Assembly (NCBI GenBank): GCA_017561575.1
Contig: JAFZBS010000007.1
Coordinates: 15,857 to 79,856, forward strand
Source of the DNA: Candidatus Saccharimonadota bacterium
GTDB taxonomy: Bacteria > Patescibacteriota > Saccharimonadia > Saccharimonadales > Saccharimonadaceae
Direction: 5' to 3'
Length of the DNA: 64,000 nt
Positions 16,832 to 63,278 of this stretch are shown here, one piece after another. Made by a program: the position numbers and the translations under genes. The notes beneath the pieces were generated by a model that saw only the letters and a program-made list of their open reading frames with translations, was not told the origin of the DNA and ran no database searches. Each line of letters opens with the position of its first letter. The stretch's first letter is position 1.

Positions 16832-17872
16832 ATGAATATTTGGGACAAATTGGCGAGGCCGTTTTTGATTTTGGCGCCGATGGAAGGGGTGACGGACGTG
16901 ATTTTTCGCCAGGTGGTGGCGGAAGCTGGCCGGCCGGATTTGTTTTTTACGGAGTTTACTAATGTATCATCTTATGCTTCAGAGAAGGGACGGGCGAATG
17001 CACTAGAGAGGCTAACGATTGCGCCGACGGATCCACCGATAATTGCACAGATTTGGGGTAAAAATCCGGAGCATTTTGCGGTGGTAGCGGGAGCTTTGGA
17101 GGAGCTTGGCTTTGCAGGGGTGGATATTAATTTTGGCTGTCCTGATAAGAATGTGAACAGGGCTGGGGGCGGTGCAGCGATGATTAAAACGCCGGAACTA
17201 GCGGTGGAATGCTTGCGGAATGCGAAAAAAGCAACAAATTTGCCAGTGTCGGTAAAAACGAGACTCGGGTGGAGCTCTATTGACGAGTATAAGGAGTGGT
17301 TGTCAGTACTATTAGGAGAACACCCGGCAGCTCTTACGGTGCATCTTCGTACTAAGAAAGAGATGAGCAAGGTGCCGGCGCATTATGAGTTAATTCCAGA
17401 GATAGTGCGACTGCGTGATGAAATAAGTCCAGAGACAAAGCTAGTAATTAATGGTGATATCAGAGATAAAGCACATGCGATGAGCCTTTACGAGCAGTAT
17501 CCAGAGGTGGATGGGTTTATGATCGGGCGCGGAGTGTTTGTAAATCCGTATTGCTTTACGGATTATCAACCGACCAGGGAAGATTTGGTAAAATTACTAA
17601 AAAAGCATTTAAGTTTATATAGTGAACGTGTGAATGGTTGTTCGAGGAGCATTTGCGACAACGGGAGCAAACTAGCGAGCGAGCCCCGTAACGACGGGCG
17701 CGAGCGAAGCGGCGACGAGAATAACCATCCACACGTTCCATATGAGCCACTCAAGCATTTTTTCAAGATTTATATTAATAATTTCCCGGGGGCGGGGGAG
17801 ATAAGAGCGAAGCTAATGGAAACACATTCGGTGGAAGAGGCGTGGAAGGTGATAGAAGATGCGGGATTATAG
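16832..17872 (+). CDS. dus: tRNA-dihydrouridine synthase carrying an in-frame palindromic insertion
   Basis: LAPMEGVTD, DINFGCP, PVSVKTR, NGDI and MIGRG. Confidence 0.93.
   Translation: MNIWDKLARPFLILAPMEGVTDVIFRQVVAEAGRPDLFFTEFTNVSSYASEKGRANALERLTIAPTDPPIIAQIWGKNPEHFAVVAGALEELGFAGVDINFGCPDKNVNRAGGGAAMIKTPELAVECLRNAKKATNLPVSVKTRLGWSSIDEYKEWLSVLLGEHPAALTVHLRTKKEMSKVPAHYELIPEIVRLRDEISPETKLVINGDIRDKAHAMSLYEQYPEVDGFMIGRGVFVNPYCFTDYQPTREDLVKLLKKHLSLYSERVNGCSRSICDNGSKLASEPRNDGRERSGDENNHPHVPYEPLKHFFKIYINNFPGAGEIRAKLMETHSVEEAWKVIEDAGL
17624..17738 (+). repeat. In-frame palindromic element, copy 1 (in dus)
   Basis: Arms GAACGTGTGAATGGTTGTTC / GAATAACCATCCACACGTTC; core GAGCCCCGTAACGACGGGCGCGA at 17681-17703. 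Confidence 0.85.
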
Positions 17873-18410
17873 GTTGGCGCAACATTTTTTACGTTCTCCA
17901 AGACTGGCTTTGATGTTGATTGGACACTCAAATTTGAAAAAAAGAGATTTGGTGGTAGAGATTGGGGCGGGGTCTGGAGTAATTACGAGCGCGCTGTCAA
18001 AACGCGTGCGACAAGTGATTGCGATTGAGCCAGATGCTACAACTGTAGCAAAACTAACAGAGAATTTGTCAAAAAGAGGAATTACTAACGTGACGGTGGC
18101 ACAAAAGGAATTTCAGGATTTTGAACTGCCAGATGAGCCATATAAAGTGTTTGCGAATCCGCCATTTCATTTGAGCTCGGAGATTTTGCATAAATTGATT
18201 GAAGATAAAAATCCGCCGGAGGCGATTTATCTGATTTTACAGAAGCAGTTTGCGTTGAAACTACTGAATAACACTAGACATTATACTTCGCAACTGGGGT
18301 TTCAATTGACACAGGATTATGAAACTAAGATACGTTTGCCTTTGAAACCGAATGATTTTACGCCTCCACCGGCGGTGCCGTGTGTGTTTTTTGAAGCAAA
18401 GAAAAAGTAG
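17859..18410 (+). CDS. Second rRNA adenine N6-methyltransferase (Erm/KsgA family), catalytic domain only
   Basis: AQHFL, VEIGAGSG, FANPPF and FTPPPAV. Ends without the C-terminal helical domain. Confidence 0.82.
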   Translation: MRDYRLAQHFLRSPRLALMLIGHSNLKKRDLVVEIGAGSGVITSALSKRVRQVIAIEPDATTVAKLTENLSKRGITNVTVAQKEFQDFELPDEPYKVFANPPFHLSSEILHKLIEDKNPPEAIYLILQKQFALKLLNNTRHYTSQLGFQLTQDYETKIRLPLKPNDFTPPPAVPCVFFEAKKK

Positions 18411-18433
18411 ATAGAGGCACTATTTGCTAAAAC

Positions 18434-19174
18434 TTAAAAATCTGTTATAATATAATTTTTGACTAAATCGTAGAGATCCTTATGCGCCAGTTCAAACGAA
18501 TCGCGACCACGTTCTGAAAAATCTTTCACCAACTGATAGTACTCAAGCCCATGAGGGTCACCTTCCAATTCGGTCCAATCGAGCATAAATTTAGCGATTG
18601 ATTTTACAAAATCGTAGGCCACGACATCAGCTATGTCGTCAGTGAAATTGTAGTAAACCAGCCGATGTTTTTCTGGACCAATGAGATAATCGTCGGGCGA
18701 AAAGATCGGATATCTAACTATGGGACTGTCTCCGCCAGCTGCAATGAGCTCAAAAAAGCCGTAGAGCTTGAAGAGACGCCCCATGATCCAGACACTAGTG
18801 CGAGCGTCGATTGTGACATTTGCATGAAGTTTTGCAAGCGGGGTTAGCTCACTGAGGTCGATATCGGGCATCGTGAGTACGTTGATGCGCCGGTCGTCTT
18901 GAGTGGGCTCCATAAACGAAGTTTCAATTTTAGCAAAGAGCCAGTTGTAGCTTGTTCCCGGTACGCCTCCTTTTTTCTCGAATGTTTCAATTTCGTCTGC
19001 GAGTAAGCTCATTTGATAGAGCTTGGCAGATTCTTTGGCCAGGACAACACCGTCTTCGAAAGTTTTTGCGACTTTTAAGATTACCGATTGTCCGTCTGCT
19101 TTTTTGCCGAGGTAGATACGAAATTTTGAGGATTCGCCAATGCGTGTACCCACCTCGATGTCTTTTACCTTCAA
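18434..19174 (-). CDS. Degenerate protein-kinase-like fold protein
   Basis: IG...IYLG, VILKVA with a helix-C Glu, and IDARTSVWIMGRL. No HRD or DFG motif. Confidence 0.5.
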   Translation of the reverse strand: MKVKDIEVGTRIGESSKFRIYLGKKADGQSVILKVAKTFEDGVVLAKESAKLYQMSLLADEIETFEKKGGVPGTSYNWLFAKIETSFMEPTQDDRRINVLTMPDIDLSELTPLAKLHANVTIDARTSVWIMGRLFKLYGFFELIAAGGDSPIVRYPIFSPDDYLIGPEKHRLVYYNFTDDIADVVAYDFVKSIAKFMLDWTELEGDPHGLEYYQLVKDFSERGRDSFELAHKDLYDLVKNYIITDF

Positions 19175-19371
19175 TTTTTGTCACCTCTCCCCTGATTATA
19201 GAATCAAGATATTAAAATACTATGCCTCTCATATAGTGATGCATTGATAATATTTTGTCACGATATGGATAATTAGTCAAGAGTGGATAAGATATAGTAT
19301 AGATAAAATGTCATCAATGTACGGATTGAATTGACTAACCAATTATTATATTATATAATATAGGTAAATAA

Positions 19372-20295
19372 TTGTTGTTTTTTAGCAATTCGTATTTTAA
19401 AAAGGCGGTGTTTTCTTTGGATAAATTTCTTGATTCTGGTGTCACATGGGTCATTGTTGGCGTTATTATAGGATTTTTTGCAGGTGTTTTGCTAGGAACG
19501 ATTTCTGATACTATTTCGAGCATTCGCGAGCGTGCGGCTAGGAAGTATTTTGACAACTTGGCAGAGGAGCATAAAGATTTATGGTTTCACGGTTTTAAGG
19601 TGACGCGTTTTTTTAAAAATGATGCGTTTTTCCGTTTTCAAAAATGGCTTGGCGGCGGAATTTGCTATGAAATGGCGGCATTAATGATGATCTTGCTTAA
19701 GAGCAATCGTAGTGCTGTGCTGTATCGAGGAGATTATTTCGTAAATGATGAGCTTCAGACACATCATTCTTGGGTGGAATTTAAGGTGCCTGGTGCCGGT
19801 GTTTTTGTTGCTGATTTTGCTTGGATAAATGAATTTGTAAAGAAAAAAGAATATTTCAGAGAGATGACAAAAGACAGCCGTGGCAAAAGTAGCTTGATAG
19901 TTCGTTTTAAATGTAGCTATGATGAGTTTTGGGCGATGCCATGGCCGAATATTGTTTATGAAAAAATGAAACATCAGGAGAAATCAAGGTTGTTAATGGC
20001 CTTGGCGGCTTTTGGCGATTCGAGTAGTGATGATTATGGATTCCCTAAAATCGTGACTGACACATCAAGCGTGCTTGACGCAGAGACGATTGATTGGGTG
20101 GGAGAATTCATGGAGCCATACATTTATGGTGGTGAGAGCCATCGTATTATTTCCACTGCGATTTTGCGGGATTTTGCGAAAAAAAATTCACGCAAGCAAC
20201 CTCGAGCGAGAAATATCCGTAAGTCAATGTATGTTTTGAAATTGATTGAGAAAGAAAAGAAGAAGATATCGGCTAAAGAATCCCCGCAGACTTAA
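19372..20295 (+). CDS. Membrane-anchored protein with a transglutaminase/papain-like Cys-His-Asp triad
   Basis: TM helix followed by GGICYE, HHSWVE and VADF. Start uncertain. Confidence 0.55.
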   Translation: MLFFSNSYFKKAVFSLDKFLDSGVTWVIVGVIIGFFAGVLLGTISDTISSIRERAARKYFDNLAEEHKDLWFHGFKVTRFFKNDAFFRFQKWLGGGICYEMAALMMILLKSNRSAVLYRGDYFVNDELQTHHSWVEFKVPGAGVFVADFAWINEFVKKKEYFREMTKDSRGKSSLIVRFKCSYDEFWAMPWPNIVYEKMKHQEKSRLLMALAAFGDSSSDDYGFPKIVTDTSSVLDAETIDWVGEFMEPYIYGGESHRIISTAILRDFAKKNSRKQPRARNIRKSMYVLKLIEKEKKKISAKESPQT

Positions 20296-20483
20296 AGTCG
20301 GCGGGGATTTTTGATGTCATAGAAATATAGTGGAATTAAAAGTTTGACTTTTTGGTGTTTTGTGATATGATATCTTTGTGGTGCTTTTGCGAAATTTAGC
20401 ACCAAGTATTTTGTAAAGGTAGGTAATTGTTTATGAATTACTAGTTTTTCTACGATCTTGATGGTATTATTCTGCAGAGGAGG

Positions 20484-20732
20484 ATGGATGAGTTGGACCG
20501 AGAAGCGTTTTTAAAATCACGCTTTGAAACCCTGTTGGACGAATTTGAGGGAGCCGATACGCTGGAGCTTTATGACATTAACGCGGAAGCGGAAGAATAC
20601 TTTAGAGAATTTTTGGAAGCTGGTTTCGATGCTGACCTTGTGGCGATGCTGCTTGCGCCTGATGACGTGGTTCGACACTACGCTGAACTCACTGAATACG
20701 GCGCTACGATTGACATCGAGGATTTGATTTAG
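20484..20732 (+). CDS. Small acidic hypothetical protein
   Basis: SD GGAGG, its own promoter and a downstream hairpin. Confidence 0.6.
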   Translation: MDELDREAFLKSRFETLLDEFEGADTLELYDINAEAEEYFREFLEAGFDADLVAMLLAPDDVVRHYAELTEYGATIDIEDLI

Positions 20733-20868
20733 CATTTTAATATTAAGTTTCCTAAGAAAACTAAACAAGCAATTTAATCCTGATTAAAATGTCCTCGGCA
20801 GCCAGCCGAGGCTTTTTATTTATTAAGGCGGTTGTTTTGGTAAAAATTTTTTATGCTATAATGGAGTT

Positions 20869-21001
20869 GTCTCATGCTATACTTCGGTCACTGGCAATGA
20901 GAAAAGTTTAAGGTTGCGGCTATTGTCATTTATGGTCGTAACTAAGAGCCAATAAATATAAGGCTCACATAAATGACTCTATTAATTAATTTAAGGAGTC
21001 A
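20869..21001 (+). promoter_or_regulatory. Structured 5' leader, candidate riboswitch-like element
   Basis: Three stem-loops, a loop-to-downstream pairing, and an SD-sequestering stem TGACTC/GAGTCA. Confidence 0.45.
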
Positions 21002-21004
21002 ATT

Positions 21005-21259
21005 ATGAAAAACTTTAACAAAAACAACAAAATAGAGAGGGTCGAGGTTATGGCACTTTTCGGCTATGAGATGACCCCATGTCAGCCTTTGAATTTTAGG
21101 CGACAGGGAGAATCTGAGACCGAAATTACCGAGCTTTTACAAACCCATATTCGGTTTGTGGGCGAGGTGGCACTTCATATCTTCGATATATTAGTTGGTC
21201 GGGAAAAAATGACACTCGAGTTTAACTCGCGTGACCTTTCCTGGCACCTCACACAATAA
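21005..21259 (+). CDS. Small beta-rich hypothetical protein (DUF6504-like pattern)
   Basis: SD AAGGAG, pattern P..F...F.I......LEF...L.W.L, and a terminator at 21259-21286. Confidence 0.65.
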   Translation: MKNFNKNNKIERVEVMALFGYEMTPCQPLNFRRQGESETEITELLQTHIRFVGEVALHIFDILVGREKMTLEFNSRDLSWHLTQ

Positions 21260-21386
21260 AATTAGCCCCTTAAAGGGGCTAATTTTATTAGGAGAATTAT
21301 GATATAAGCATTGACATTTTAAGGGAAGTGTGGTATAATGTAAGGAGAGTTTGGGGGATTAAAACTAGCAGATTAAAAGGGAGGAT

Positions 21387-23051
21387 TTGAGGATGTATTC
21401 GTTTGAGAAGGAAAACGGGCTGTCTGAAAAATATATAAAAAGGTTGCCCGTGAAGGAAGTACTATTCGCGTTAATCCCACTAGCAGTTTCTGTCTTGATT
21501 ATGATGGGGATTGAATACCTGGCGCTGCCCGCCTTGACCCTGCGAAGCCCTGGCTTTGCTTGGTTTGTGGTGGCGGGGATTGCAATCCTCGCGATTTCTT
21601 ATGCGGTCTTCTTTCAATTGATGGACTGGGATGGCTTTTGGCTTGTCCCCTGGATTGTATTGGGGGCGGTCATCCTGATTGCCTTAGTCATGGGAATGAC
21701 GTCGTGGACGTGTTTCCATGCACCGAAGGCGGTAGCGGTGGCAGATGTGACTGTGAGCGAAACAGCGGTTACGGAAGCTTTCCCGGATCTTGCAGAAGCA
21801 GGGAGCGTGGAAAGCCTCGCCCTAGTGGATTTAGATTCGGCGGTTATGCTCGGCGATAAAAAGGTTGCCGGGCTGAAAAATGCCTCCTGGTACGACATCA
21901 ACAAGGATTACAACCTGATTCAATATCAGGGGAAAATTTACCGTTTGAGCTTCCTGGAATACGGTGGCCTCCGCAAGTGGTGGAAGGCTAAGTATGATGG
22001 TATTCCCGGGTATGTTCTGGTGGAATGCACCCCCGAGGGCGGTGTAGTTTCTCAAAGCGCCACCCTGGTGGAGCTTGAAGAGCCGATCCGCTACTCCGAA
22101 GGTGCCTACTTTGGACATGACCTCCGGCGTCACTTGAGACGTCAGTACCCTCAGTATATGTTTGACGAATCGCGTCCGGAAATTGACGACAATGGTACGC
22201 CGTACTATGTGACCGGCGTGCTACGTCCTACGTGTGGCGTATGGGGCGTAAGGACCGTGTCTAGCGTTATCCTGACCAACGCCCAGACCGGAGAATCTGC
22301 CGAATATGCGGTGGACCAGGTACCTGAATGGGTAGACAACATCTACTCTCTAGATTATCTGATGGACATCGCTGGGTGGCATTATGCCTACCGTAGAGGA
22401 TGGTGGAATGCCGTCTTTGGCGGAAAGACCGACGTGTGGTATACATCATATCATTATCGTGATAGCCGGTCTAATTCTGACGACGGGAAGTTTGCCAACT
22501 TTTACGGCTATAGTGCGACCGTCGTTAATGGCCGGGTTACTTTGTACACCGGTCTGACGGCGGCTAACTCTGCAGAATCTAACCTCGGATGGCTATTGTT
22601 GGATGCCCGGAGTGGCAAGATGACCCAATATGCTGTGGTTGGCGCCGAAGAAAGCTCGGCGCAGGCTGCGGCGGAACAACTGGTCTCTGCCTACAGATAC
22701 CAGGCGACGTTCCCGTTGCCGGTCAACGTTGGCGGAGAGCCGACGTACTTGATGTGTCTCAAAGGCGCAGCGGGTATTGTGCAGGGTTATGCTCTGTGTA
22801 ACGTGGACAATTATGCGATAGTTGTGCAAGCGGAGACTCTGCCCGAGGCTATCGGTCAGTATCTGGCGAAATTGGGGCACACTCAGGTGGCGCCCCCCAT
22901 ACAAAGTGCGCCCACGGACGAGTACGTTGGCGCCGAAGTCTTCTTCGATGGTGAAGTGGTGAACACGTACACTATCGAAGTGAACGGAACGACGCAAATA
23001 TACTTCGAAATGGATGACGGCAGCGTATATGTTGTCGTCAAGATTAAATAA
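21387..23051 (+). CDS. Membrane protein with three N-terminal TM segments and a large extracellular domain; GC-richer than flanks
   Basis: Long ORF with SD GGAGG, TTGACA-17-TATAAT promoter at 21311-21339, and terminator at 23066-23092. Confidence 0.8.
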   Translation: MRMYSFEKENGLSEKYIKRLPVKEVLFALIPLAVSVLIMMGIEYLALPALTLRSPGFAWFVVAGIAILAISYAVFFQLMDWDGFWLVPWIVLGAVILIALVMGMTSWTCFHAPKAVAVADVTVSETAVTEAFPDLAEAGSVESLALVDLDSAVMLGDKKVAGLKNASWYDINKDYNLIQYQGKIYRLSFLEYGGLRKWWKAKYDGIPGYVLVECTPEGGVVSQSATLVELEEPIRYSEGAYFGHDLRRHLRRQYPQYMFDESRPEIDDNGTPYYVTGVLRPTCGVWGVRTVSSVILTNAQTGESAEYAVDQVPEWVDNIYSLDYLMDIAGWHYAYRRGWWNAVFGGKTDVWYTSYHYRDSRSNSDDGKFANFYGYSATVVNGRVTLYTGLTAANSAESNLGWLLLDARSGKMTQYAVVGAEESSAQAAAEQLVSAYRYQATFPLPVNVGGEPTYLMCLKGAAGIVQGYALCNVDNYAIVVQAETLPEAIGQYLAKLGHTQVAPPIQSAPTDEYVGAEVFFDGEVVNTYTIEVNGTTQIYFEMDDGSVYVVVKIK

Positions 23052-23113
23052 TCCCCCTTACTCTAAAAGGAGGCCTCCCCGGCCTCCTTTTCCATTTGTG
23101 TTATAATGTTAAT

Positions 23114-24184
23114 ATGCAAGATTTGAAGAAAAGACTAGAAGTGCTCCGGGATGATTTTTTGAAGATTTACGAGCGGCTTAAAATTGACGAAAAATTGGCG
23201 GATTTGGCAGAGCTTGAAAAGGAAGTGGCGGAGCCGGAAATTTGGCGAGACGTGACGAGGGCAACAGAAAAGAATCAGGAGCTAGCAAAACTGAAAGATG
23301 AAACGGAAGCCTGGATACTTTTAAAAACTCAGATTAATGATATGAGTGAGCTTCTTGAGATGGCCGATGAGGATTTGAAAGATGAGATGAGTGAGCAGAT
23401 TGAGGCGATGGAAAAACAGCTAATAGAGCTAAGAAAGGCGCTTCGATTTACTGGGCGATATGATGCAAGTGATGCGATTGTAAGGATTACTTCTGGGGCT
23501 GGGGGGACAGAAGCAATGGATTGGGCGGGGATGCTTGAGAGAATGTATCTTAGGTTTTTTGAAAGGAAGGGTTTTAAGGTAACATGCCTCGAAAAAGTGG
23601 CTGGTGAAGAGGCTGGAATAAAGACTGCGGTGTATGAGGTGAGTGGCACGAATGTATATGGTACTTTAAAATCCGAGCATGGCGTACATCGTTTGGTGCG
23701 CCTTTCGCCGTTTAATGCGAATAATTTGCGCCAGACTTCGTTTGCGCTGGTTGAAGTTTTGCCAGTAATTAAAGCCGACACGGAGGTGGTGATTGATGAC
23801 AAGGATCTTAGGATTGATGTGTATCATTCGGGTGGACATGGTGGGCAGTCGGTGAATACGACTAATTCGGCGGTACGAATTACTCATATCCCAACAAACA
23901 CCGTGGTGGCGATTCAGAATGAACGTTCGCAGCTGCAAAATAAAGAGAAAGCGATGGAGATTCTGCGAGGTAAGCTAGCACAGATGCAAATGGAGCAGCA
24001 TGCGGCGACGATTGGGGAGCTGCGCGCTGGCGAGTCGGCGGGTTGGGGGCAGCAGATTCGTAATTATGTGATGCAGCCGTATAAGTTGGTTAAGGATACG
24101 CGTACTGGATGCGAAACATCTGATGTAGATGCGGTTTTAAATGGTGAAATAGATGATTTTATTGACAAATATTTAGAAATGTGA
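23114..24184 (+). CDS. prfB: Peptide chain release factor 2, no programmed frameshift
   Basis: SPF and GGQ motifs in one continuous ORF. Confidence 0.96.
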   Translation: MQDLKKRLEVLRDDFLKIYERLKIDEKLADLAELEKEVAEPEIWRDVTRATEKNQELAKLKDETEAWILLKTQINDMSELLEMADEDLKDEMSEQIEAMEKQLIELRKALRFTGRYDASDAIVRITSGAGGTEAMDWAGMLERMYLRFFERKGFKVTCLEKVAGEEAGIKTAVYEVSGTNVYGTLKSEHGVHRLVRLSPFNANNLRQTSFALVEVLPVIKADTEVVIDDKDLRIDVYHSGGHGGQSVNTTNSAVRITHIPTNTVVAIQNERSQLQNKEKAMEILRGKLAQMQMEQHAATIGELRAGESAGWGQQIRNYVMQPYKLVKDTRTGCETSDVDAVLNGEIDDFIDKYLEM

Positions 24185-24268
24185 TATAATGGAAGGATAG
24201 GGCTGATTTAAGGCTCTATTTTTTATTTTACTCTTGTATTTGGTTTTTTAATGTGATATAATGTAGGG

Positions 24269-24440
24269 GTTAGTCCTAGACATAAGGATAGGTCTGTTAT
24301 TTCACGGACAGAAACCAGCCTAAAAGTCTAGTTTTAATAGTGCCGTTTTGCCTGTTGTACAGAGGCGAAACGACAGCCGAAAAGGAGCCGCTTATAGGGC
24401 GGACAGGGCTAATAAAAACAGATATGTGGAGTCTGTTTTT
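24269..24440 (+). promoter_or_regulatory. Structured leader RNA of the rplC operon
   Basis: TTGTAT-17-TATAAT at 24234-24262, followed by multiple nested complementary segments. Confidence 0.5.
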
Positions 24441-24478
24441 ACAATAAAACAACAAATTTTTTAAAGGAAAGGTAAGAA

Positions 24479-25099
24479 ATGCAAGTCATTCTCGGCACCA
24501 AGATTGGTATGACCCAGATTATCGGCGAAAATGGCGTGGTTACTCCAGTGACCATTCTACAAGCCGGTCCGTGCACAGTGACTCAGATAAAGACTGTCGA
24601 AAGCGATGGTTATAATGCTGTGCAAGTGGGCTATGGTCAGGGTAAGAATCTGAGCAAGTCGGTTGCTGGCCACGTGAAAAAGGCCGGTGAAAATATAAAT
24701 CCTAAAGTTCTCAAAGAATTTCGCGTAGATGAAATTCCAGAGGGCATGAAGCTAGGCGACACTCTTACGGTGGAAAGTTTTAAGCTTGGCGATAAGGTAG
24801 CTGTGACTGGTACGAGCAAAGGTAAAGGTTTTGCCGGTACGGTGAAGCGTTGGAATTTCCAAGAATCTCGTAACACGCACGGTTTTAAGGGTGACATTAG
24901 GAAAGTTGGCTCAATTGGGTCAATGTATCCGCAAAAAGTATTTAAAGGCAAAAGAATGCCAGGTCGTATGGGACATGACACTGTGACGGTCAAGAATTTG
25001 GAGGTTACATATATTGATGCAGCTAACAACCTGATTGGTCTTAAAGGTGCAGTGCCGGGTCCTAAGAAGGGCGTTGTAACTGTGGAGGGAAAGGAGTAA
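24479..25099 (+). CDS. rplC: 50S ribosomal protein L3
   Basis: LGTKIGMTQ and GTSKGKGFAG. Confidence 0.98.
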   Translation: MQVILGTKIGMTQIIGENGVVTPVTILQAGPCTVTQIKTVESDGYNAVQVGYGQGKNLSKSVAGHVKKAGENINPKVLKEFRVDEIPEGMKLGDTLTVESFKLGDKVAVTGTSKGKGFAGTVKRWNFQESRNTHGFKGDIRKVGSIGSMYPQKVFKGKRMPGRMGHDTVTVKNLEVTYIDAANNLIGLKGAVPGPKKGVVTVEGKE

Positions 25100-25100
25100 T

Positions 25101-25697: not shown

Positions 25698-26089
25698 TGG
25701 CGGACAAGAAGACTGCAGAGGTGAAGCTACACATGCTAGGGCCACGTGCAACCGAAAAAACCTATCTTGAGCAAACAAAGCGAACCTATGTTTTTCCAGT
25801 AAAGAAGAGCATGGGTAAGCAAGCAATTGCCAAGATGGTGGAAGAAGAATTTAATGTCAAGGTTACAGATGTAAGGACTTTGATTCGTGACGGTAAAAAG
25901 ACTAAATTTAGCAAAGGTAAGCATGCTTATCCTGGTATTACGCATCGTCAAGATAAGAAATATGCATATGTAACTCTTGCTGAAGGCAATTCAATCAGAG
26001 TGTTTGATGAGCCAGAGAAAGAAGAAAAGAAAACCAGCGCAAAGGAAGCCAAAAAGGCAGACAAGAATGCAGGGAAGGAGAATAAATAA
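25697..26089 (+). CDS. rplW: 50S ribosomal protein L23 with a charged C-terminal extension
   Basis: TEK...YVF.V...K..I...F.V.V..V.T...KYAYVTL; position in the operon. Confidence 0.93.
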   Translation: MADKKTAEVKLHMLGPRATEKTYLEQTKRTYVFPVKKSMGKQAIAKMVEEEFNVKVTDVRTLIRDGKKTKFSKGKHAYPGITHRQDKKYAYVTLAEGNSIRVFDEPEKEEKKTSAKEAKKADKNAGKENK

Positions 26090-54536: not shown

Positions 54537-54560
54537 TATTGCTTATGCTATAATTGAAGC

Positions 54561-55319
54561 ATGATATTGCTCGATAATGTGACGAAGGCTTATCCTGGCG
54601 ATAAAGAACCGGCACTAGATTCGGTGTCTCTTCATATTGCACCAAACGAGTTTGTATTCTTGGTGGGGAAATCTGGTGCTGGCAAGTCGACGCTTATTAA
54701 GATGATTACAAAGGAAGAAATCCCAGATTCTGGCAAAATAATTGTTGGCGGCATAGATCTAGATTATGTGAAAAAGCGTCATATTCCTGGCTATCGACGA
54801 AGGCTTGGTGTAGTGTTTCAAGATTTTAAGTTGCTTCCGAGAAGGACGGTATATGAGAACGTTGCCTTTGCGCTTGAAATTGCGGGAATGAGTGGAAAAG
54901 AAATTCGAAAAACAGTGCCAAAAGTACTAGAATTGGTAGATTTGCTAGACCAAGCAAAAAAATTCCCCGATCAGCTGTCTGGTGGGCAGCAGCAGAGAGT
55001 ATCAATTGCGCGTAGTGTGGCGAGACAGCCGAAGATTTTGATAGCAGATGAGCCTACCGCAAATCTCGATAAGTTGACGACAGCAGAAATAATTGCACTC
55101 TTAAAAAAGATTAACGATTTTGGTACAACAATTCTGGTTTCTACACACGATGAGGAGGTGGTGAATAATTTACAAAAACGCGTAGTGACTTTGAAGGGCG
55201 GCAAAATTGTGGATGATCAAAAGAACAATGGCATTTATAAATTGGATGAAGCGAAAGTTCCGCATGTTAAGCGTACAATACAAACTCCTGGTCATGCAAT
55301 TAAGAGGAAGGTAATATAA
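54561..55319 (+). CDS. ftsE: Cell division ATP-binding protein FtsE
   Basis: GKSGAGKST, GVVFQDFKLL and LSGGQQQRV.IAR; lies upstream of ftsX. Confidence 0.93.
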   Translation: MILLDNVTKAYPGDKEPALDSVSLHIAPNEFVFLVGKSGAGKSTLIKMITKEEIPDSGKIIVGGIDLDYVKKRHIPGYRRRLGVVFQDFKLLPRRTVYENVAFALEIAGMSGKEIRKTVPKVLELVDLLDQAKKFPDQLSGGQQQRVSIARSVARQPKILIADEPTANLDKLTTAEIIALLKKINDFGTTILVSTHDEEVVNNLQKRVVTLKGGKIVDDQKNNGIYKLDEAKVPHVKRTIQTPGHAIKRKVI

Positions 55320-56341
55320 TGACAAAAAAGGACGACAAAGATTTAAAAAAGACTTCCAAGAAGAGCCTGCGGGTGATGCGAAAGACACACGCGAAGCATC
55401 CTTTGCGTGAAGAAGGTCGGATTTTGAAATATGGCACTAAAGGATGGGCTAGAAACATTTGGCTTTCGACTGCGGCAACGGCTGTAATGGCGATTACGAT
55501 GATAATTCTGTTTGTGACGGTGGTAGCAAGCGTGATTTTGACAAATACTGCCGAAATGATGCGAGAAAAAATCGACATTACAATTTATTTAAAGCCTGGT
55601 ACTTCGAGCAAAGTTTTAGGGCAATTGACTGATATTATTACAAAAGACAAAAATGTCAAAAGCGTGGCGGTATCAACTTCGGAAGAAGAATATGAAAAGT
55701 TTATTGAAGAAAATGCCGGTAGCGAGGAAATATTAAATGTCCTAGATGAAGAAATGAAGGCATTGATGCTAGCTAAAATGCAAGCAACAATGCGAATTAA
55801 GGTTCACGATGTGGATAATTTGGATAGCATAAAGAAGTTAGTTGGAGAAAACGAGGTATTTAAGGCAAATATTGATGAAGAAATGGCTCCAACTTACGAT
55901 GTGAATCAGGTTGAAATCGCAACTATTACTTCTTGGGCTAGAATTGCACGAACTGGTGGAATAATTCTTGCCGCGGTGTTTTTGGTAATATCAGTTTTGA
56001 TTATTTTCTCAACGATTAGGATGGCTATTTTCTCAAGACGAGAAGAGATATATATGATGAAGCTCGTTGGCGCAGACAAAAGATTTATTCGTGGTCCGTT
56101 TCTTGTGGAGGCTGAGATTTGTGGCGTAATTGCTGGTATTGTGGCAGCGACGGCAAGCTACTTTGGCTTTATGGCGGTGATGCCAGGGCTTTCTGATTAC
56201 GGCATAAATGTGGACACTATAACTGACGTTTTGGAATCAAATAAGTTGATTTTGATGTATATCGTGTTTGTTGCTGTCGGTGTAATAATTGGGCGCGTCT
56301 CAGCAAGGCTTGCCGTATCGAAATACTTACACAAAACCTAG
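55319..56341 (+). CDS. ftsX: Cell division permease FtsX
   Basis: TIRMAIFSRREEIYMMKLVGA..FIRGPF. Confidence 0.93.
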   Translation: MTKKDDKDLKKTSKKSLRVMRKTHAKHPLREEGRILKYGTKGWARNIWLSTAATAVMAITMIILFVTVVASVILTNTAEMMREKIDITIYLKPGTSSKVLGQLTDIITKDKNVKSVAVSTSEEEYEKFIEENAGSEEILNVLDEEMKALMLAKMQATMRIKVHDVDNLDSIKKLVGENEVFKANIDEEMAPTYDVNQVEIATITSWARIARTGGIILAAVFLVISVLIIFSTIRMAIFSRREEIYMMKLVGADKRFIRGPFLVEAEICGVIAGIVAATASYFGFMAVMPGLSDYGINVDTITDVLESNKLILMYIVFVAVGVIIGRVSARLAVSKYLHKT

Positions 56342-56360
56342 AATATGTTATAATGTAATT

Positions 56361-57548
56361 ATGGTAATACTTAGCACCAAGCAGAAGAAGATTCTAACTT
56401 TTGTGATGGTGTTTTTCTTGTTTGCTACGCCAATTTTCGGAGGAGTAATGATGGTGCGTAGCGCTCGTGGTTTATCAAAAGCTTGTCGTAACAGTGAAGC
56501 CTGTATGGCTGCGGTTGCAAGAGAGCAAGCCGCCAATAAGAACGCTGCACAGGCGGCGGCAACTGCTAATTTATTTCAGAATAAGGTTTATGAGTTAAAC
56601 GCAGAGATAGCGGCCAAGGAGCTTCAAATTGCTGAAACGGAAGCTGAAATTGATGAGTTAACGCATGAAATTAAGGAAGCTGAGAAAAAGCTGAATGCCG
56701 AGCAGGATGCACTAGCGGAACTATTAATTAATATGCATTTTGAGTCCGACTCTGAGCCGATTACCATTCTTGCGGGGTCTAGTTCGATTTCTGATTTAGC
56801 AGAAAAGCAGGCGAGAAACGAGGTCGTGAAACAGCAAATTGGTGCGACAGCAAAGACTGTAAAGGAAACAAAGCTGCAACTGGAGGCGGACAAGGCGAAA
56901 GTTGAAGAGCTTTTAGCTCAACAAAAGACGGCTAAAATTGAACTAGAGAAGACTCGCGCTGAACAGCAGGCGCTTGTTATTAAATATGAAAACGATGCCG
57001 CCGGTTATGCGGCGGAGGCAGAAATAGCTAGGGCAGCACAACGTGAGGCAGAAAGAGCTTATCAGGAAGCACACAAAGAGCTATTTCAGGGTAGTAGCTA
57101 TACCGGTGATGACACTTATCCATGGCAGGCTGATTGTCCGGCGAAACAAGATTATTATACTACTTACATTGAAGATGGCTATGGTTCAAGAAAGATTGGT
57201 GGTTATGTTTGCGAGTGTGTGAGCTATGCTGGTTGGAAGGCTTACGAAGCTTATGGATTGGCGCTTGCATGGGGCAATGCTTATAGTTGGGATGACGGTG
57301 CGAGGGCGGCAGGTTACAGAGTTGATCATGTTCCGGAAGCAGATTCGATTGGGCAGGTTGACGGCTACCCGTATGGACATGTCTTTTGGGTTGAAAATGT
57401 AAACGACGATGGTTCGATTAACGTTACGGAATATAATAATTCATATGCAACATATCTTTATTCTGGTGTTTCTCAGTACGGGAGTTTTGGTTCTAGGCGT
57501 ATTTCGGCTGGGGAAGTTTGGCAGTATAACTTTATTCATTTGAAATAA
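56361..57548 (+). CDS. PcsB/CwlO-like coiled-coil CHAP peptidoglycan hydrolase
   Basis: Coiled coil followed by ECVSY, WGNA.SW, GHV.WVE and EYN; lies after ftsEX. Confidence 0.9.
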   Translation: MVILSTKQKKILTFVMVFFLFATPIFGGVMMVRSARGLSKACRNSEACMAAVAREQAANKNAAQAAATANLFQNKVYELNAEIAAKELQIAETEAEIDELTHEIKEAEKKLNAEQDALAELLINMHFESDSEPITILAGSSSISDLAEKQARNEVVKQQIGATAKTVKETKLQLEADKAKVEELLAQQKTAKIELEKTRAEQQALVIKYENDAAGYAAEAEIARAAQREAERAYQEAHKELFQGSSYTGDDTYPWQADCPAKQDYYTTYIEDGYGSRKIGGYVCECVSYAGWKAYEAYGLALAWGNAYSWDDGARAAGYRVDHVPEADSIGQVDGYPYGHVFWVENVNDDGSINVTEYNNSYATYLYSGVSQYGSFGSRRISAGEVWQYNFIHLK

Positions 57549-57586
57549 ATAAATTTTTGAATTCCTTTTTGTGTTATAATAAAGTA

Positions 57587-58777
57587 ATGAGTAAAAAGAT
57601 AGAGTGGAAAGAGAAAAAAACTAGCCTTGGCAATGCGATTATTATAGGCGCTGTACTTGCAATAGTCGGAGTAATAATCGGCGCAAATTGGAATGGTTGG
57701 TTTTCGCAGTATTCCGGTTTTTTAGGTTTTGATTCCGGACAATCGGCGGACTGGTCGCAGCTTAATGAAGTATATGATAAATTAAAATCTACCTATAACG
57801 GCGAGATTGATACTAAAGAATTGGTTGAGGGCGCAAAAAAAGGAATGGTTGAAGCCATCGGTGATGCTTATACCCTATATATGGATGCGGATGAAAGCAA
57901 AGATTTTTATAATAGCTTGCATGGAAATGTCGGCTCTGGAATTGGGGTTGAAATGGGGCTTCGTGATGGTTATGTAAGAGTGCTTAGAACTTTGCCGGAT
58001 AATCCTGCAAGAAAAGCTGGCATTCTTGCTGGAGATATTATTTATAAAGTGAATGGGGAGGAAGTTTGGTCACAATCATCTGATGAAATTGCAAGAAAGG
58101 TTCGTGGCGAGAGTGGCAGTGAGGTCACGATTACCGTGGTACGTGATGGTAAAGAGATAGATTATACAATGGTTAGGGAGACAATCAATAATGTTTCTGC
58201 TTATGTGGAATATGATGACAAAACGGCCATTGTTGCTGTTACTAGGTTTGATAATGATACTGGTACTGAAATTCAAAAAATGGCAGATAAGTTTGCAGAG
58301 AAAGGCATAAACAAAGTAATTTTGGACCTTCGTGGCAACGGTGGTGGTTATGTTAATGCCGCGCAAGATTTATTGTCTTTGTGGCTTGATAATCAAAAGA
58401 TTTTGACGCAAAAATCTTTGCACTATGGTAATACAACTACTTCGACTTCCTCTGGCAAGGCTATTTTAAAGGATATGAAAACGATTGTACTTGTAAATGG
58501 CTCTACTGCTTCAGCGTCAGAAATAGTGGCTGGGGCATTACAAGATTATGGTAAGGCGACGATTGTGGGTGAAAAGACTTACGGCAAAGGTGTTGTCCAA
58601 AATATCTTTGATTTGTCTGGTGGCGCAACACTTAAGGTGACAACCGCCTCCTGGTATACCCCAAATGATCGTTCAATTGGTGGAGAAGGAATCACTCCAG
58701 ATATTGAGGTGGAGCGGACTTACGAAGATATCAATACGATGCGTGACCCACAGATGAAAAAAGCCAAGGAGCTTTGA
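57587..58777 (+). CDS. S41 carboxy-terminal processing protease
   Basis: PDZ domain, LDLRGNGGG, ASASEI and TYGKG.VQ. Confidence 0.93.
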   Translation: MSKKIEWKEKKTSLGNAIIIGAVLAIVGVIIGANWNGWFSQYSGFLGFDSGQSADWSQLNEVYDKLKSTYNGEIDTKELVEGAKKGMVEAIGDAYTLYMDADESKDFYNSLHGNVGSGIGVEMGLRDGYVRVLRTLPDNPARKAGILAGDIIYKVNGEEVWSQSSDEIARKVRGESGSEVTITVVRDGKEIDYTMVRETINNVSAYVEYDDKTAIVAVTRFDNDTGTEIQKMADKFAEKGINKVILDLRGNGGGYVNAAQDLLSLWLDNQKILTQKSLHYGNTTTSTSSGKAILKDMKTIVLVNGSTASASEIVAGALQDYGKATIVGEKTYGKGVVQNIFDLSGGATLKVTTASWYTPNDRSIGGEGITPDIEVERTYEDINTMRDPQMKKAKEL

Positions 58778-60012
58778 TGCGAATTGTAATTGCTACAGCA
58801 GTATATCACCCAATGATAAACGGTGTGGCGGTGTTTTCGCATAATTTAGCAATGGGGCTAGCGAGGCGGGGAAATGAAGTTTTGGTGATTTGCCCTTCGC
58901 AAAATGGGAAAAATTATACTGAAGTACAGGATGGGGTAAAAGTTTGTTATTTGAAATCGATACAGGTTAAGGTATATCCGGATCAGATTCACGCGACGAA
59001 TAAACGAAAGAAGTGGCAGATTTGGTATAAGCATGGGTTTAGGGTTTCAGTTTTTCCGAAGATTGAAGTAAAAAAGATTCTAGATGATTTTAAACCCGAC
59101 GTGGTACATGTGCAGGTGTCTGATCCAATTGGCTTGTCCGTGGTGTCATATGCTCGAAAAAATGGCATACCAGTTGTAACAACCGAACATAATCAGCCCG
59201 AGGTTTTGACGGAGCCTTTGCATGTGCCTGGCGTAGTAAAAAAACCAGTTGATGCTTTGCTCAGTGCGTATTTTGCTAATCGGCAGAGTAAAAGTGATTT
59301 CGTGACGATGCCAACCAAGCAGGCGATTTTTCGGTTGCTGGAGGGGCGGGATTTTAAAGTGCCAGTAGCGGCGGTGAGCAATGGTGTGGATTTGTCAGCT
59401 TTTAAACCCGGAAAAGTGGCGATTTCAACATATGAAAAATATGGTATATCACCTAATCAGCCAATTGTTTTATATGTGGGGAGAGTAGACCCGGAGAAAA
59501 AAGTCGGTGTAGTGATTGAAGCGTTTGCTCGGGTGCACGGGGAGGTGCCAAATGCGTTAATGCTTGTCGTGGGTGACGGAGTGGATAAGACGCGACTTAT
59601 CGCCATGGTGAAAAAGATGAAACTTGATGATTCGGTGAAGTTTTTAGGCAGAATTGTGCCACCAGAATTGTATGAAATATATAGGATGGGAACGGTTTTT
59701 GCGACGGCATCGGAAATTGAAACGCAAGGGATTGTCCTGATTGAAGCGGCAGCATCGGGACTTCCCTTAATTGCAGTGGATAAAGGTGCGGTTAGCGAGA
59801 TTTGTGTGACTGGGAAAAATGGGTTTTTGTGTGAACCTGGGGATGTTTCGGAAATTGCGGAGGCGATGGGAAAACTCTTAACTGATAAAAAGTTGCAAAA
59901 AGAATATGCCGAGACTTCTATAAAACTGGCACATGAGCACGATTTTGAAAAGACGTTAGATAAGTTTTTGAATATTTATCAAAAAGTAGTAAAAGATAAA
60001 AAGAAGACATGA
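58777..60012 (+). CDS. GT4 family glycosyltransferase
   Basis: NGVA, NGVD, YVGRV..EK and ETQGIVLIEA.ASG.P. Confidence 0.92.
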   Translation: MRIVIATAVYHPMINGVAVFSHNLAMGLARRGNEVLVICPSQNGKNYTEVQDGVKVCYLKSIQVKVYPDQIHATNKRKKWQIWYKHGFRVSVFPKIEVKKILDDFKPDVVHVQVSDPIGLSVVSYARKNGIPVVTTEHNQPEVLTEPLHVPGVVKKPVDALLSAYFANRQSKSDFVTMPTKQAIFRLLEGRDFKVPVAAVSNGVDLSAFKPGKVAISTYEKYGISPNQPIVLYVGRVDPEKKVGVVIEAFARVHGEVPNALMLVVGDGVDKTRLIAMVKKMKLDDSVKFLGRIVPPELYEIYRMGTVFATASEIETQGIVLIEAAASGLPLIAVDKGAVSEICVTGKNGFLCEPGDVSEIAEAMGKLLTDKKLQKEYAETSIKLAHEHDFEKTLDKFLNIYQKVVKDKKKT

Positions 60013-60058
60013 AAAACGGGCGTTTCCTTTAGGGAAGCGCCCGTTTAGGGGGAGGGGT

Positions 60059-60682
60059 TTAATCTTGCCAGGCGATCTCATTATACTTGGTTGCCTTTTC
60101 TTGGATTCGGATTTTCTCATTGGTGAGATCCTCCAAATCCTCCATGAGGTCGCCCAGGTCACGGTCGTAGGCCTCGACCATGCCCATTGAGCTTTGCCTG
60201 GCAAGCCAGGCGAATCCGGCAGCGAATGCGATGCCACCGAGCAAGTAGATAATCGCCGCGGCAAACGTGCCGAACGGCGTCACGGTCGGACCGTGCCATT
60301 CGAGCACAAAGAGCACTGCTGTCAGGATTCCTACGAAGAATCCGATGATTGCGTAGATGAGCATGTGCTCGCCTACGGTACGCTTAAAGAAGTTTTGACG
60401 CTTCTTCAGGCGCTGGCGTTTGGCGCGAAGTCTCTGGATTTCGGCCGAGATTTCTTCGGCCTTTTGTTCGGCCGCACGAGCCTTGTTGATATACTCGGCA
60501 CGTGAGGCTTGACGGATGTTCTCGATGACTTCGTCGAAATAGTCGTCACCCGTTTTGACCGGGGGAATGACCATTTCGACTTCGGAGTATTCCTGCTCTT
60601 CGCAGGAGGGGGTCGCGGGGGTCTTTTTGCCGTATTTGACGCCGGCAATGTACTTACCGTCTTCGCTTACGAAAAGTTTCAT
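60059..60682 (-). CDS. Hypothetical two-TM coiled-coil protein, GC-rich
   Basis: SD GGAGG and its own minus-strand TTGACT-17-TATAAT promoter at ~60743-60771. Confidence 0.7.
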   Translation of the reverse strand: MKLFVSEDGKYIAGVKYGKKTPATPSCEEQEYSEVEMVIPPVKTGDDYFDEVIENIRQASRAEYINKARAAEQKAEEISAEIQRLRAKRQRLKKRQNFFKRTVGEHMLIYAIIGFFVGILTAVLFVLEWHGPTVTPFGTFAAAIIYLLGGIAFAAGFAWLARQSSMGMVEAYDRDLGDLMEDLEDLTNEKIRIQEKATKYNEIAWQD

Positions 60683-60827
60683 GTTATTATCCTCCAAATC
60701 CCTGTTAAGGTACGAATTCTACTTTTTTAGAGTAGTGACCTAATTATAGCACACTTTGCTAAAAAAGTCAATAGTGCTTATGCTTATCAGGGGTAGGTTA
60801 GGGGGAATTATCGATAAAAACTGATAT

Positions 60828-63278
60828 TTAGACGACTAGATTTAAGATATGAGCTTTCTTGACAAAAATGGATTTTTTGATGCCACTATTAGTATATTTG
60901 GCGACTTTTTCGTCAGAGAGAGCCAGAGAGGTGATTTTTGCTTCATCTTCTAAATCATCAACAGAAACAGCGATTTTGGCGCGAAGTTTGCCGTTGATTT
61001 GGACAATTAATTCAACGGTATCAGCGGTGAGATATTTGTCATCCCAGGTAGGCCATTCATCGCTCGCGCCCAGTTTTTCGAGCATTTCAGATGCGAGATG
61101 AGGGGCAAAAGGTTTCAAAAGCTTGGCAAGTGTAGTCAAATCTTCTTTTTCAGCGCCGTTTTTGTAGAGCTCGTTGACGTATTCCATCAAGGCAGCGACA
61201 GCTGTGTTGAATTGGCTTTTATAAATATCAGTGGTGACTTTTTTGATGGTTTTGTGCCTACATGATTTTGAAAAACCGTCTTTCTCGGGACGCTCCTCGC
61301 GCCCGTCTTTACGGGGCTCGTCGCTGAGTCCTCGTAGCGACTGCGGATTCCCCTCGAAAGAGGTATTTTCAAAATCACTGTTAAACACTAAATTGTAACA
61401 ACGGTTTAAGAAACGGTAAACGCCACCGACGGAACGGGGGTCCCAGGCGGCGTCGAGCTCGACGGGACCGATGAACATTTCGTAGGTGCGGAGGGTATCG
61501 GCGCCGTAACCGTCATTAATGACGTCGAGCGGGTCGATAACGTTGCCTTTGCTTTTGCTCATCTTTTTACCATCAGGGGCATTGATGTAGCCGTGATAGA
61601 TGAGTTTTTTGATTGGTTCGCGGAAGGGTAAAAGTCCTAGGTCGGCAAAGAATTTGCACCAGAAACGAATATATAGCAGATGAGCAACGGCGTGATCGGC
61701 ACCAACGTAAATGTCGATAGGCTCCCAATATTTAACAGCTTTTTCGTCCCAGGCGTGTTTTTTGTCGTGTGGTGAGGCGTAGCGCCAGAGATACCAGGAT
61801 GAGCAAGCATAGCCATCAAGGGTGTCGGTTTCGCGAGTCATTTCTTCACCATCTATAGTAACTTTGAGCCAGTCTTTGGCTTTGGCGAGGGCAGAATGAC
61901 CGGATTTATCAGGTTGAAAATCTTTAATTTCAGGTAAGGTGACAGGGAGCTGATCTTCGGGGATTGGGTGCGGATTGCCGTCTTTGTCGTAGGCAATAGG
62001 GATTGGGCAGCCCCAATAGCGTTGGCGAGAAATCAGCCAGTCGCGCATTTTGTAAGTGGTTTTTGGTGTGCCATAGAGGTCGCGGTCGACAAGCTTTGCT
62101 TCAATAATTGGGAGATTAAACTTTTCGGCAAATTCGCGGTCGCGGTCATCGTAAGCAGGAACCGCCATAATAGCACCAGTACCATAGCCCGCAAGGACAT
62201 AATCAGCGACGTAGATTGGGATTTTTTCTTTTGTAGCAGGGTTGATGGCGTAGGAACCGGTAAAGACGCCAGTCTTTTCTTTGTTTTCTTGGCGTTCAAT
62301 TTCGGATTTTTTGAGAGCGGATTTTTTGTAATCTAAAACGGCGTCGCGAGTATCGTCCGTGATTAAATAATCTAGGCCAGGATATTCTGGGGCGACAACA
62401 AGGAAGGTGGCGCCAAGAATGGTGTCGGGTCGAGTAGTGAAGACCTTGACTGAATGGTAGCTGGATTGGTTCTCTCTCGACCTCGCTCGTTCGCGCCCGT
62501 CGTTACGGGGCTCACTCGCTTCGCTCGGGTCGTTACCCTCGCGGGACACGGTCTCTAGAGAACCAATTCCAGCTACCTTGAAGTCAATTTCGGCGCCGAC
62601 GGAGCGGCCGATCCAATTCTTTTGCATAGTTTTGATTTTGTCGGGCCAGTCGAGGGAGTCGATTTCGTCGAGTAATTCATCGGCATATTCGGTGATTTTG
62701 AAAAACCATTGTTTCATCTTCTTTTTTTCGACTTCGTGGCCGCAACGCCAGCAGTGGCCGTTTTCTACTTGTTCGTTAGCTAGAACGGTCTGATCTTCTG
62801 GGCACCACCATTGGTAGGATTCTTTTTGGTAGGCGAGGCCTTTTTTGTAAAGCTGTAAAAAGCACCACTGGGTCCATTTGTAGTATTCTGGGTCAGAAGT
62901 GTTGATTTCGCGTGACCAGTCAACGGCGTAGCCTAAGCGTTTGGCTTGTTTGCGGAAATTATCGATATTTTGTTTTGTGATTTCTTGTGGTGCGGTACTA
63001 GTCTTGATTGCGTAGTTTTCGGCGGGAAGACCAAAAGTGTCGTAGCCGAATGGACGCATCACATTTAGGCCTTGTTGGCGATAGAAACGAGCCAGTACAT
63101 CAACAATGGTGAAGTTGCGGACGTGACCAACGTGAAGGCCGGCGCCAGATGGATATGGGAACATCTCGGCTATAAATAGCTTTGGGGTGTCTTTTTTTTC
63201 GGTTGCCTTGAAGGCATTGGTTTCATCCCAGATTTTTTGCCATTTTGCTTCGATTTTGAGTGGTTCGTATCTATCCAT
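60828..63278 (-). CDS. leuS: Leucyl-tRNA synthetase with two in-frame palindromic insertions
   Basis: MFPYPSG.GLHVGH, FTTRPDT, DWLISRQRYWG.P and KMSKS. Confidence 0.97.
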   Translation of the reverse strand: MDRYEPLKIEAKWQKIWDETNAFKATEKKDTPKLFIAEMFPYPSGAGLHVGHVRNFTIVDVLARFYRQQGLNVMRPFGYDTFGLPAENYAIKTSTAPQEITKQNIDNFRKQAKRLGYAVDWSREINTSDPEYYKWTQWCFLQLYKKGLAYQKESYQWWCPEDQTVLANEQVENGHCWRCGHEVEKKKMKQWFFKITEYADELLDEIDSLDWPDKIKTMQKNWIGRSVGAEIDFKVAGIGSLETVSREGNDPSEASEPRNDGRERARSRENQSSYHSVKVFTTRPDTILGATFLVVAPEYPGLDYLITDDTRDAVLDYKKSALKKSEIERQENKEKTGVFTGSYAINPATKEKIPIYVADYVLAGYGTGAIMAVPAYDDRDREFAEKFNLPIIEAKLVDRDLYGTPKTTYKMRDWLISRQRYWGCPIPIAYDKDGNPHPIPEDQLPVTLPEIKDFQPDKSGHSALAKAKDWLKVTIDGEEMTRETDTLDGYACSSWYLWRYASPHDKKHAWDEKAVKYWEPIDIYVGADHAVAHLLYIRFWCKFFADLGLLPFREPIKKLIYHGYINAPDGKKMSKSKGNVIDPLDVINDGYGADTLRTYEMFIGPVELDAAWDPRSVGGVYRFLNRCYNLVFNSDFENTSFEGNPQSLRGLSDEPRKDGREERPEKDGFSKSCRHKTIKKVTTDIYKSQFNTAVAALMEYVNELYKNGAEKEDLTTLAKLLKPFAPHLASEMLEKLGASDEWPTWDDKYLTADTVELIVQINGKLRAKIAVSVDDLEDEAKITSLALSDEKVAKYTNSGIKKSIFVKKAHILNLVV
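61263..61377 (-). repeat. In-frame palindromic element, copy 3 (leuS, 3' part)
   Basis: Plus-strand arms TGATTTTGAAAAACCGTCTTTC / GAAAGAGGTATTTTCAAAATCA; minus-strand core GAGCCCCGTAAAGACGGGCGCGA at 61297-61319 (22/23 match). Confidence 0.85.
62456..62577 (-). repeat. In-frame palindromic element, copy 2 (leuS, start of CP1 region)
   Basis: Plus-strand arms GGTAGCTGGATTGGTTCTCT / AGAGAACCAATTCCAGCTACC; core at 62491-62513 identical (23/23) to the dus copy. Confidence 0.88.

Follow-up and report, generated by a model that had tools for sequence, protein, structure and literature searches.

The closest described counterparts of the element reported here are the Rickettsia palindromic elements (RPE) and the Wolbachia palindromic elements (WPE) (PMC10969869; PMC1166351; PMC3767692; statements attributed here to articles with PMC identifiers refer to excerpts of those articles). 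The DNA under study is a stretch of 64,000 nucleotides, termed the window, from a Candidatus (Ca.) Saccharimonadota bacterium (assembly GCA_017561575.1, contig JAFZBS010000007.1, positions 15,857 to 79,856 of the forward strand). Three hairpin elements lie within its dus and leuS genes and belong to a multicopy family that works like RPE but is not a member of that group. The family is probably a non-autonomous and likely selfish hairpin DNA, which sits in frame in enzyme loops, is kept by template switching and is spread by recombination. A first-pass annotation of the window had proposed an RPE-like family inserted in frame into genes. This is borne out as a likeness: 22 of the 25 copies in the genome are in open reading frames and three are intergenic, and 91 of 91 filled orthologous alleles are in frame.

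Elements in the window

The three inserts are where the first-pass annotation had placed them, and their host genes are Dus (PF01207) and LeuS. A 23-mer core has exactly three matches in the window, which are the core hairpins listed below, and no match in 100 shuffles of the window.

16802..17872, + strand: host gene dus (PF01207)
17624..17738, + strand: dus copy, entire hairpin (5′ arm 17624-17643, core 17644-17718, 3′ arm 17719-17738)
17681..17703, + strand: conserved core hairpin of the dus copy (CCCGT/ACGGG, flanking GA pairs)
60828..63278, − strand: host gene leuS, 816 amino acids, frame open through both inserts
61263..61377, − strand: leuS C-site copy (pairing reaches about 61260-61381)
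61297..61319, − strand: conserved core hairpin of the leuS C-site copy
62456..62577, − strand: leuS N-site copy (weaker pairing reaches about 62446-62587, into host codons)
62491..62513, − strand: conserved core hairpin of the leuS N-site copy

The window copies share a core that is read in the sense orientation and in one frame as EPR(N/K)DGRE, as had been described. Their closing inverted repeats differ and still pair. The folding z-scores of the three inserts against dinucleotide shuffles are −3.3, −5.9 and −6.9; the reported tandem GA/GA at the top of the stem and the variable 5′ hairpin are both present. Both strands of the inserts fold about equally well under standard DNA parameters. 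The dus insert is positioned between two helices of the Dus C-terminal domain in an AlphaFold model. The leuS C-site insert is in a variable loop where the anticodon-binding domain begins, and the N-site insert is in the turn that opens the editing (CP1) region. The net gain over empty alleles is ∼35 codons at leuS N, 32-37 at dus and ∼27 at leuS C, which corrects the earlier estimate of loops of ∼35-40 amino acids.

Size and distribution of the family

Further copies had been anticipated, and an nhmmer search found 25 in the 622,696-base genome that carries the window (80% complete) and none in the reversed genome. They are clustered, with nine on contig C5 (60 kb) and one on C1, C2, C6 and C7 together (350 kb). 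A census of the same genome that was blind to family detected 32 long hairpins, 21 of them of the main family, and none in the shuffled control.

The core pattern is found in 12 of 24 genomes of the genus and in none of 16 genomes of other families; in a class-wide draw it is in five of seven genus genomes and in none of 193 others. The core is thus limited to one Saccharibacteria genus among the genomes searched. A wider contig scan matched at least 124 stretches. Of the 80 matches listed, the title names Saccharibacteria or Ca. Nanosyncoccus in 68, the latter in ten, and ruminant gut is the main source where one is stated; from these titles the genus is likely Ca. Nanosyncoccus. The closest leuS relative among 368 scored genus genomes is ∼78% identical over the whole gene, and one metagenome contig shows 88% identity in the middle of leuS.

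Matches were pooled for the family-wide counts. The 25 copies of the genome and 92 others gave 117, of which 104 were kept; six chance matches in unrelated taxa were removed, as were seven with a stem no better than shuffles, mostly truncated, among which the leuS N copy of the window fell out because its search window was misplaced. A blastn search against plasmids and phages gave no match. The single match in viral contigs is within a phage open reading frame, no mobile-element gene was seen there, and it was taken as chance. Rfam applied to the window found only tRNA at the gathering score, and its eight weak matches, in five loci, do not fall on a copy. Literature searches of openly accessible articles found no description of the element in Saccharibacteria.

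Other hairpins accompany the main family. A second, AT-richer family of 85-205 nt has TTTTTACAAC-type inner repeats and likewise a shared core with a private stem; one of its copies is in frame within ileS. Its members in the genome of the window (G000) are:

C3:91878-92047, second hairpin family
C4:10068-10272, second hairpin family
C6:48326-48498, second hairpin family
C8:4257-4428, second hairpin family
C9:31236-31320, second hairpin family

A third hairpin type is found at the start of mnmA (L167 5742-5876, on C5 of G000), where run X5 has 36 other letters instead, and the main-family copies of mnmA and dnaX appear nested within arms of this type. A short single-hairpin subtype that the profile does not catch is also in frame, in xseA (G000 C3:5232-5337) and at LeuS loci L004, L009, L016, L019 and L020.

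Structure and private stems

The element folds into a Y: the outer stem has tandem GA at its upper end and leads to two hairpins, of which the 5′ one is variable and the 3′ one conserved. Hairpin length has a median of 119 nt (interquartile range 116-129, n = 103) and is made up of a common core of ∼75 nt enclosed by a stem of ∼20 bp that is private to the site; with the inner helix included, the stem median is 25 bp. One-base bulges number 89 in the 5′ arm versus 45 in the 3′ arm, and stem mismatches are A.G in 58 cases versus C.T in 9. Among the 103 copies, a strong match between arms is seen solely at orthologous sites. Arm identity is 0.39 in the 17 pairs whose cores are at least 0.9 identical versus 0.43 in other pairs, and in two pairs whose cores are identical the arm identity is 0.33 and 0.22.

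Covariation of the fold, as predicted, was detected. In the 25 copies of the genome, both partners vary in seven of the 14 core pairs (38 cells versus 13.4 in shuffled and at most five in slid controls, with the core structure named from the same sequences), the GA/GA positions interchange with Watson-Crick pairs, and at the orthologous Dus site the arms covary. These paired changes show a kept fold, not an RNA function, because template switching can yield such changes, including multibase compensatory ones (PMC8794818). Stem covariation in such elements therefore need not signal a functional RNA. From a conserved fold with free stem sequence, the first-pass annotation had suggested a non-autonomous element or a structured RNA recognised by shape. 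Conservation of structure and lack of autonomy stand; the stem, which is private to the site and partly overlaps host codons, is not simply a carried part read by its shape.

At two dus loci (L280 and L300, of G112 and G106) an extra hairpin is present in the loop of the conserved core hairpin, with the frame kept.

Reading frame and probable translation of the inserts

The sense orientation and common frame of the window copies do not extend to the family. The copies of the genome consist of 15 sense copies in two frames, seven antisense and three intergenic; with relatives included, antisense copies make up 28 of the 84 that lie in genes. In none of 55 cases is the stop-containing sense frame used, whereas antisense copies use all three frames. 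At the four sites with orthologs, 242 of 242 alleles are multiples of three without stops and 91 of these carry the stem (LeuS N 29, LeuS C 32, Dus 18, TypA 12), the ortholog loci having been selected by best match to a filled query, a choice biased towards filled, in-frame alleles; the own-genome count is free of this bias. Avoidance of stops in six frames by the T-poor, GA-rich face was considered and rejected (4.0 open frames versus 3.8-3.9 in controls).

In the Dus model the fold is kept (pTM 0.82) and pLDDT is under 50 across most of the insert. Thermus thermophilus LeuRS has four residues where the LeuS of the window has 39, the N site corresponding to a four-residue turn, and in the same alignment the C site corresponds to a variable loop. 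The inserts are likely translated as disordered loops in housekeeping enzymes. Inserts of 27-38 residues distort marker-gene alignments and trees in the genus.

Insertion sites as hotspots

Empty sites among Dus and LeuS orthologs, which the first-pass annotation had expected, were revealed by alignment. LeuS N, LeuS C, Dus and TypA each have empty, relic and filled alleles across the genus, and the hairpins at these four sites differ in core, occur in either orientation and belong to unrelated families. The sites in dus and leuS are hotspots of insertion throughout the genus. On an 81-row LeuS tree built after removal of the inserts (L228, a long row that was misassigned, is included), the N-site insert requires 16 gains or losses, seven of which are forced by branches of at least 95. 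One core subtype is found in opposite orientations between homologous arms (L011 and L193 versus L028).

Near-identical strains were compared by means of contigs from four DNA runs of four studies, the longest listed pieces being ∼94-99% alike. A 134-nt typA copy is replaced by 20 other letters in all four runs, and a 111-nt mnmA copy is replaced by nine letters in one of the four. In alaS, another core or orientation is found behind a related arm. In leuS, one run matches the C-site copy and the pieces of three others end at its edges; a metagenome contig has an identical leuS N copy and a different C copy. These differences may represent allele exchange instead of fresh jumps, because the arms of this typA copy occur in another species (L307).

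Origin of the stems

Pairing can also extend into the host flanks. At LeuS N the mean pairing run of the flanks is 5.0 in filled versus 3.9 in empty alleles (p 1.5e-4) and 4.1 with swapped flanks, and at Dus flank pairing exceeds that of swapped flanks (p 5e-5); copies at orthologous sites are kin, so these p-values overstate the significance. The Asn-Ser codons that precede ITV at LeuS N are the reverse complement of the upstream Glu-Phe codons. Asn-Ser is present in five of 29 filled alleles and in none of 65 empty ones; among filled alleles, it is in five of ten with Glu-Phe versus none of the 19 others, representing about three independent events. Single LeuS C alleles have host Ile/Leu-Arg codons within the downstream arm. 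Because either flank can serve as template, copying after insertion, filtered by protein constraint, appears to fit better than a one-way copy made when the element inserts. Nor do the two strain-level empty alleles support a simple inverted duplication of the target, since the letters replaced there are not plainly copied in either arm.

Strand bias

Of 104 copies, 87 have their GA-rich face on the C-rich strand, as do 20 of the 25 copies of the genome and 16 of 20 intergenic copies. The same is found for 27 of 39 copies in co-directional genes, where this face is antisense. Most scored coding sequence (73%) is encoded on the G-rich strand, and so is the ribosomal block. The strand with most coding sequence and the ribosomal block is the leading strand; with the G-rich strand taken as leading, the GA-rich face therefore corresponds to the nascent lagging strand. 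Head-on genes hold 45 of 84 in-gene copies versus 27% of coding sequence. A bias of insertion and a bias of survival both fit these data.

Proposed maintenance and spread

It is proposed that template switching during replication would keep the private stem paired, would lengthen it into host codons and would use it to flip the core. Recombination would exchange cores inside one genome and entire alleles among lineages, with recombination or natural transformation as the presumed carrier. For the rare colonisation of a new site, the likeliest step would be that host enzymes incorporate a single-stranded copy of the GA-rich face into the lagging strand as it is synthesised, with no resident transposase; taken on its own, this step is put forward tentatively, as somewhat less likely than not. 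A more far-reaching and doubtful proposal is homing without a transposase, whereby persistent hairpin 'sockets' in conserved genes have private stems derived from the host, and unrelated cores invade, replace one another and flip as single strands incorporated into the lagging strand, crossing species by natural transformation. If true, this would represent a class of mobile DNA defined solely by shape and host replication.

Host factors were looked for in five element-rich genomes (G000, G006, G011, G018 and G020), which are metagenome-assembled and 80-98% complete, and in which mobile genes are often unassembled. ComEC is present in all five, and MutS (MutS_V) and SbcD (SbcD_C), looked for in these genomes only, were found in none. 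Saccharibacteria are described as naturally transformable (PMC10633639).

Several points weigh against the proposal of a selfish hairpin kept by template switching, besides the kinship of copies and the favouring of in-frame orthologs given above. Translation of the inserts is deduced from DNA sequence. Stem length is held tightly near 20 bp, which unchecked template switching leaves unexplained. The ratio of G.T to A.C is 63:39 with a strict definition of the stem and 145:153 with a loose one. Flank pairing is not significant at Dus against its four empty alleles (p 0.18), and at LeuS C neither the comparison with empties (p 0.21) nor that with swapped flanks (p 0.16) reaches significance. 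One genome (L021) has a single element, outer stem included, at both of its LeuS sites, which speaks against a purely local origin and means that stems can travel. The typA arms are common to another species, as mentioned, and no recent insertion at a new site was observed. Exonuclease VII limits template switching in E. coli, and it is present in all five element-rich genomes.

Alternative explanations

An unlikely alternative is a REPIN-like element or miniature inverted-repeat transposable element (MITE) moved in trans by an HUH transposase (RAYT, TnpA) or another transposase, with the private stem formed as an inverted target copy at insertion. The excess of A.G over C.T mismatches and the replication bias would suit a single-strand enzyme, the arms overlap host codons and hairpin length is tightly held. 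In addition, RAYT-like Y1 genes of ∼200 amino acids, up to six per genome and with short flanking palindromes, are found in five of 16 other families of the order (L032-L042); these genes are unrelated to the hairpin element. The co-occurring HUH/RAYT transposase that the first-pass annotation had suggested was not found: PF01797 (HUH/Y1) is absent from the genome of the window and present in one of 24 genus genomes, which is without the element pattern. A RAYT protein query and searches for IS110, TnpB and DUF559 each gave none in the five incomplete element-rich genomes, and GIY-YIG matches are within long frames, the two shortest loci being without a copy. A scan for the HUH motif in the genome of the window gave no hits, and no mobiliser candidate was seen among the neighbours of intergenic copies or, on reading by eye, in the open reading frames between eight close pairs of copies. 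Further points against a transposase are the lack of a terminal tag, target duplication not above control and the strain-level empty alleles described above. Moreover, if the GA-rich face is the active one, its place on the leading-strand template departs from IS608, whose active strand prefers the lagging-strand template (PMC5027513).

It is very unlikely that the hairpins are kept for a benefit to the host, acting as mRNA structures or as charged peptide loops that adjust tRNA and DNA enzymes of low abundance. The host genes do suggest it. All 22 in-gene copies of the genome (20 insertions from one scan plus the three window copies, mnmA being counted twice in the scan) are in tRNA synthetases, tRNA/rRNA modification enzymes, translational GTPases or DNA enzymes, versus 26 (30 counted generously) of 125 length-weighted samples of random coding sequence, 70 of which have no NCBIfam hit at 1e-25, with a library that differs from that of the host-gene scan. 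The same sites are also refilled across species. However, the class was defined after the hosts had been seen, and a few copies of relatives are in genes outside it. Five different reading frames yield unrelated peptides, empty, relic and swapped alleles exist among close relatives, and RPE hosts include genes of these kinds (PMC3767692). The host bias would suit a homing-like spread, since recombination between lineages affects conserved genes; it would equally fit if soluble enzymes of low abundance tolerate the inserts.

Retro-copying concerns a neighbouring feature. At 1810-6204 the window has a diversity-generating retroelement (DGR):

about 3496-3683: DGR variable repeat, end of the FISUMP-domain gene
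about 3996-4183: DGR template repeat
4184-5401: DGR reverse transcriptase
5398-6204: DGR Avd-like open reading frame, assigned by position

The template and variable repeats are 88% alike, with mismatches at template A positions. RVT_1 is present in 18 of 24 genus genomes versus three of 16 outside the genus, and the reverse transcriptase genes examined in the genus are mostly of the DGR type. This distribution, and the DGR in the window itself, would be consistent with copying of the element by the resident reverse transcriptase and uptake of the cDNA at the fork. Such an origin is highly improbable: reverse transcriptase is in ten of 12 element-positive versus eight of 12 element-negative genus genomes (p 0.64), the near-complete and element-bearing G011 and G012 show none, and no copy is found beside the four reverse transcriptase loci checked.

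The least probable reading is a structured RNA spliced from the mRNA or bypassed by the ribosome, which the covarying fold with tandem GA pairs and the essential host genes might suggest; removal from the mRNA, raised by the first-pass annotation, is not supported and splicing is unlikely, because none of the 91 ortholog alleles with a stem breaks the frame or contains a stop, and the antisense copies, the unused stop-holding sense frame and the lack of an Rfam match on any copy also argue against this reading.

Comparison with known repeat elements

REP/REPIN-RAYT sequences and CGTC repeats are, like the present element, non-autonomous palindromes, some of them intragenic in replication and repair genes, and CGTC repeats are likewise without a dedicated transposase (PMC3733652). 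The stems differ in length, ∼20-25 bp here versus 5-13 bp, with 8-9 bp in CGTC repeats (PMC3733652); CGTC is found at the stem end in eight of 103 copies and the terminal GTAG tag of REP near the stem end in only 11 of 103. The element also differs from REP/REPIN in being mostly intragenic, and no RAYT was found in the element-bearing genomes, which are incomplete. From classical MITEs it differs in that arms are unrelated between sites, with no shared terminal inverted repeats, and in that direct repeats at the ends equal the control, giving no target-site duplication.

The strand-specific folds and the orientation bias with replication resemble those of IS200/IS605 elements (PMC5027513), but no TnpA or TnpB partner was found here. 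If the GA-rich face is the active one, its place on the leading-strand template is opposite to the top-strand rule of IS608 (PMC5027513). Template switching at quasipalindromes likewise makes reverse-complement arms and multibase compensatory changes and repairs stems (PMC8794818). It is, however, a mutation process and not an element, and it leaves the shared core and the first insertion unexplained. Self-splicing introns and bypassed sequences differ in that antisense copies occur here and in that frame and stops are constrained.

The closest likeness is to RPE (RPE-1 to RPE-10) and WPE, which are multicopy palindromes of 100-150 bp (the present family has 25 copies with a median of 119 nt). 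They interrupt unrelated housekeeping genes without loss of frame, with genic and intergenic copies, and are in exposed or variable protein regions, as predicted here from the Dus model and the LeuRS alignment (PMC10969869; PMC1166351; PMC3767692). In Rickettsia, different groups are found at one orthologous site, and host types overlap with those reported here (queA, ileS, DNA polymerase, helicase) (PMC3767692). The excerpts of PMC10969869 and PMC3767692 name no mobiliser or mechanism of spread. The present element is from another phylum and is confined to one Saccharibacteria genus among those searched. The ATGAC signature of RPE-4/6/7 occurs at 0.6 per kb here versus 14-19 per kb in eRPE-4 (PMC3767692), and many cores and several unrelated families are built here on one plan. 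Site-private stems, in-place flips, strain-level swaps and a strand bias do not appear in the RPE accounts excerpted. In this genus, which has at least 368 species genomes, alleles at the same sites range from empty and relic to filled, flipped and swapped, even in near-identical strains, and the origin of such elements can therefore be tested by population genomics.

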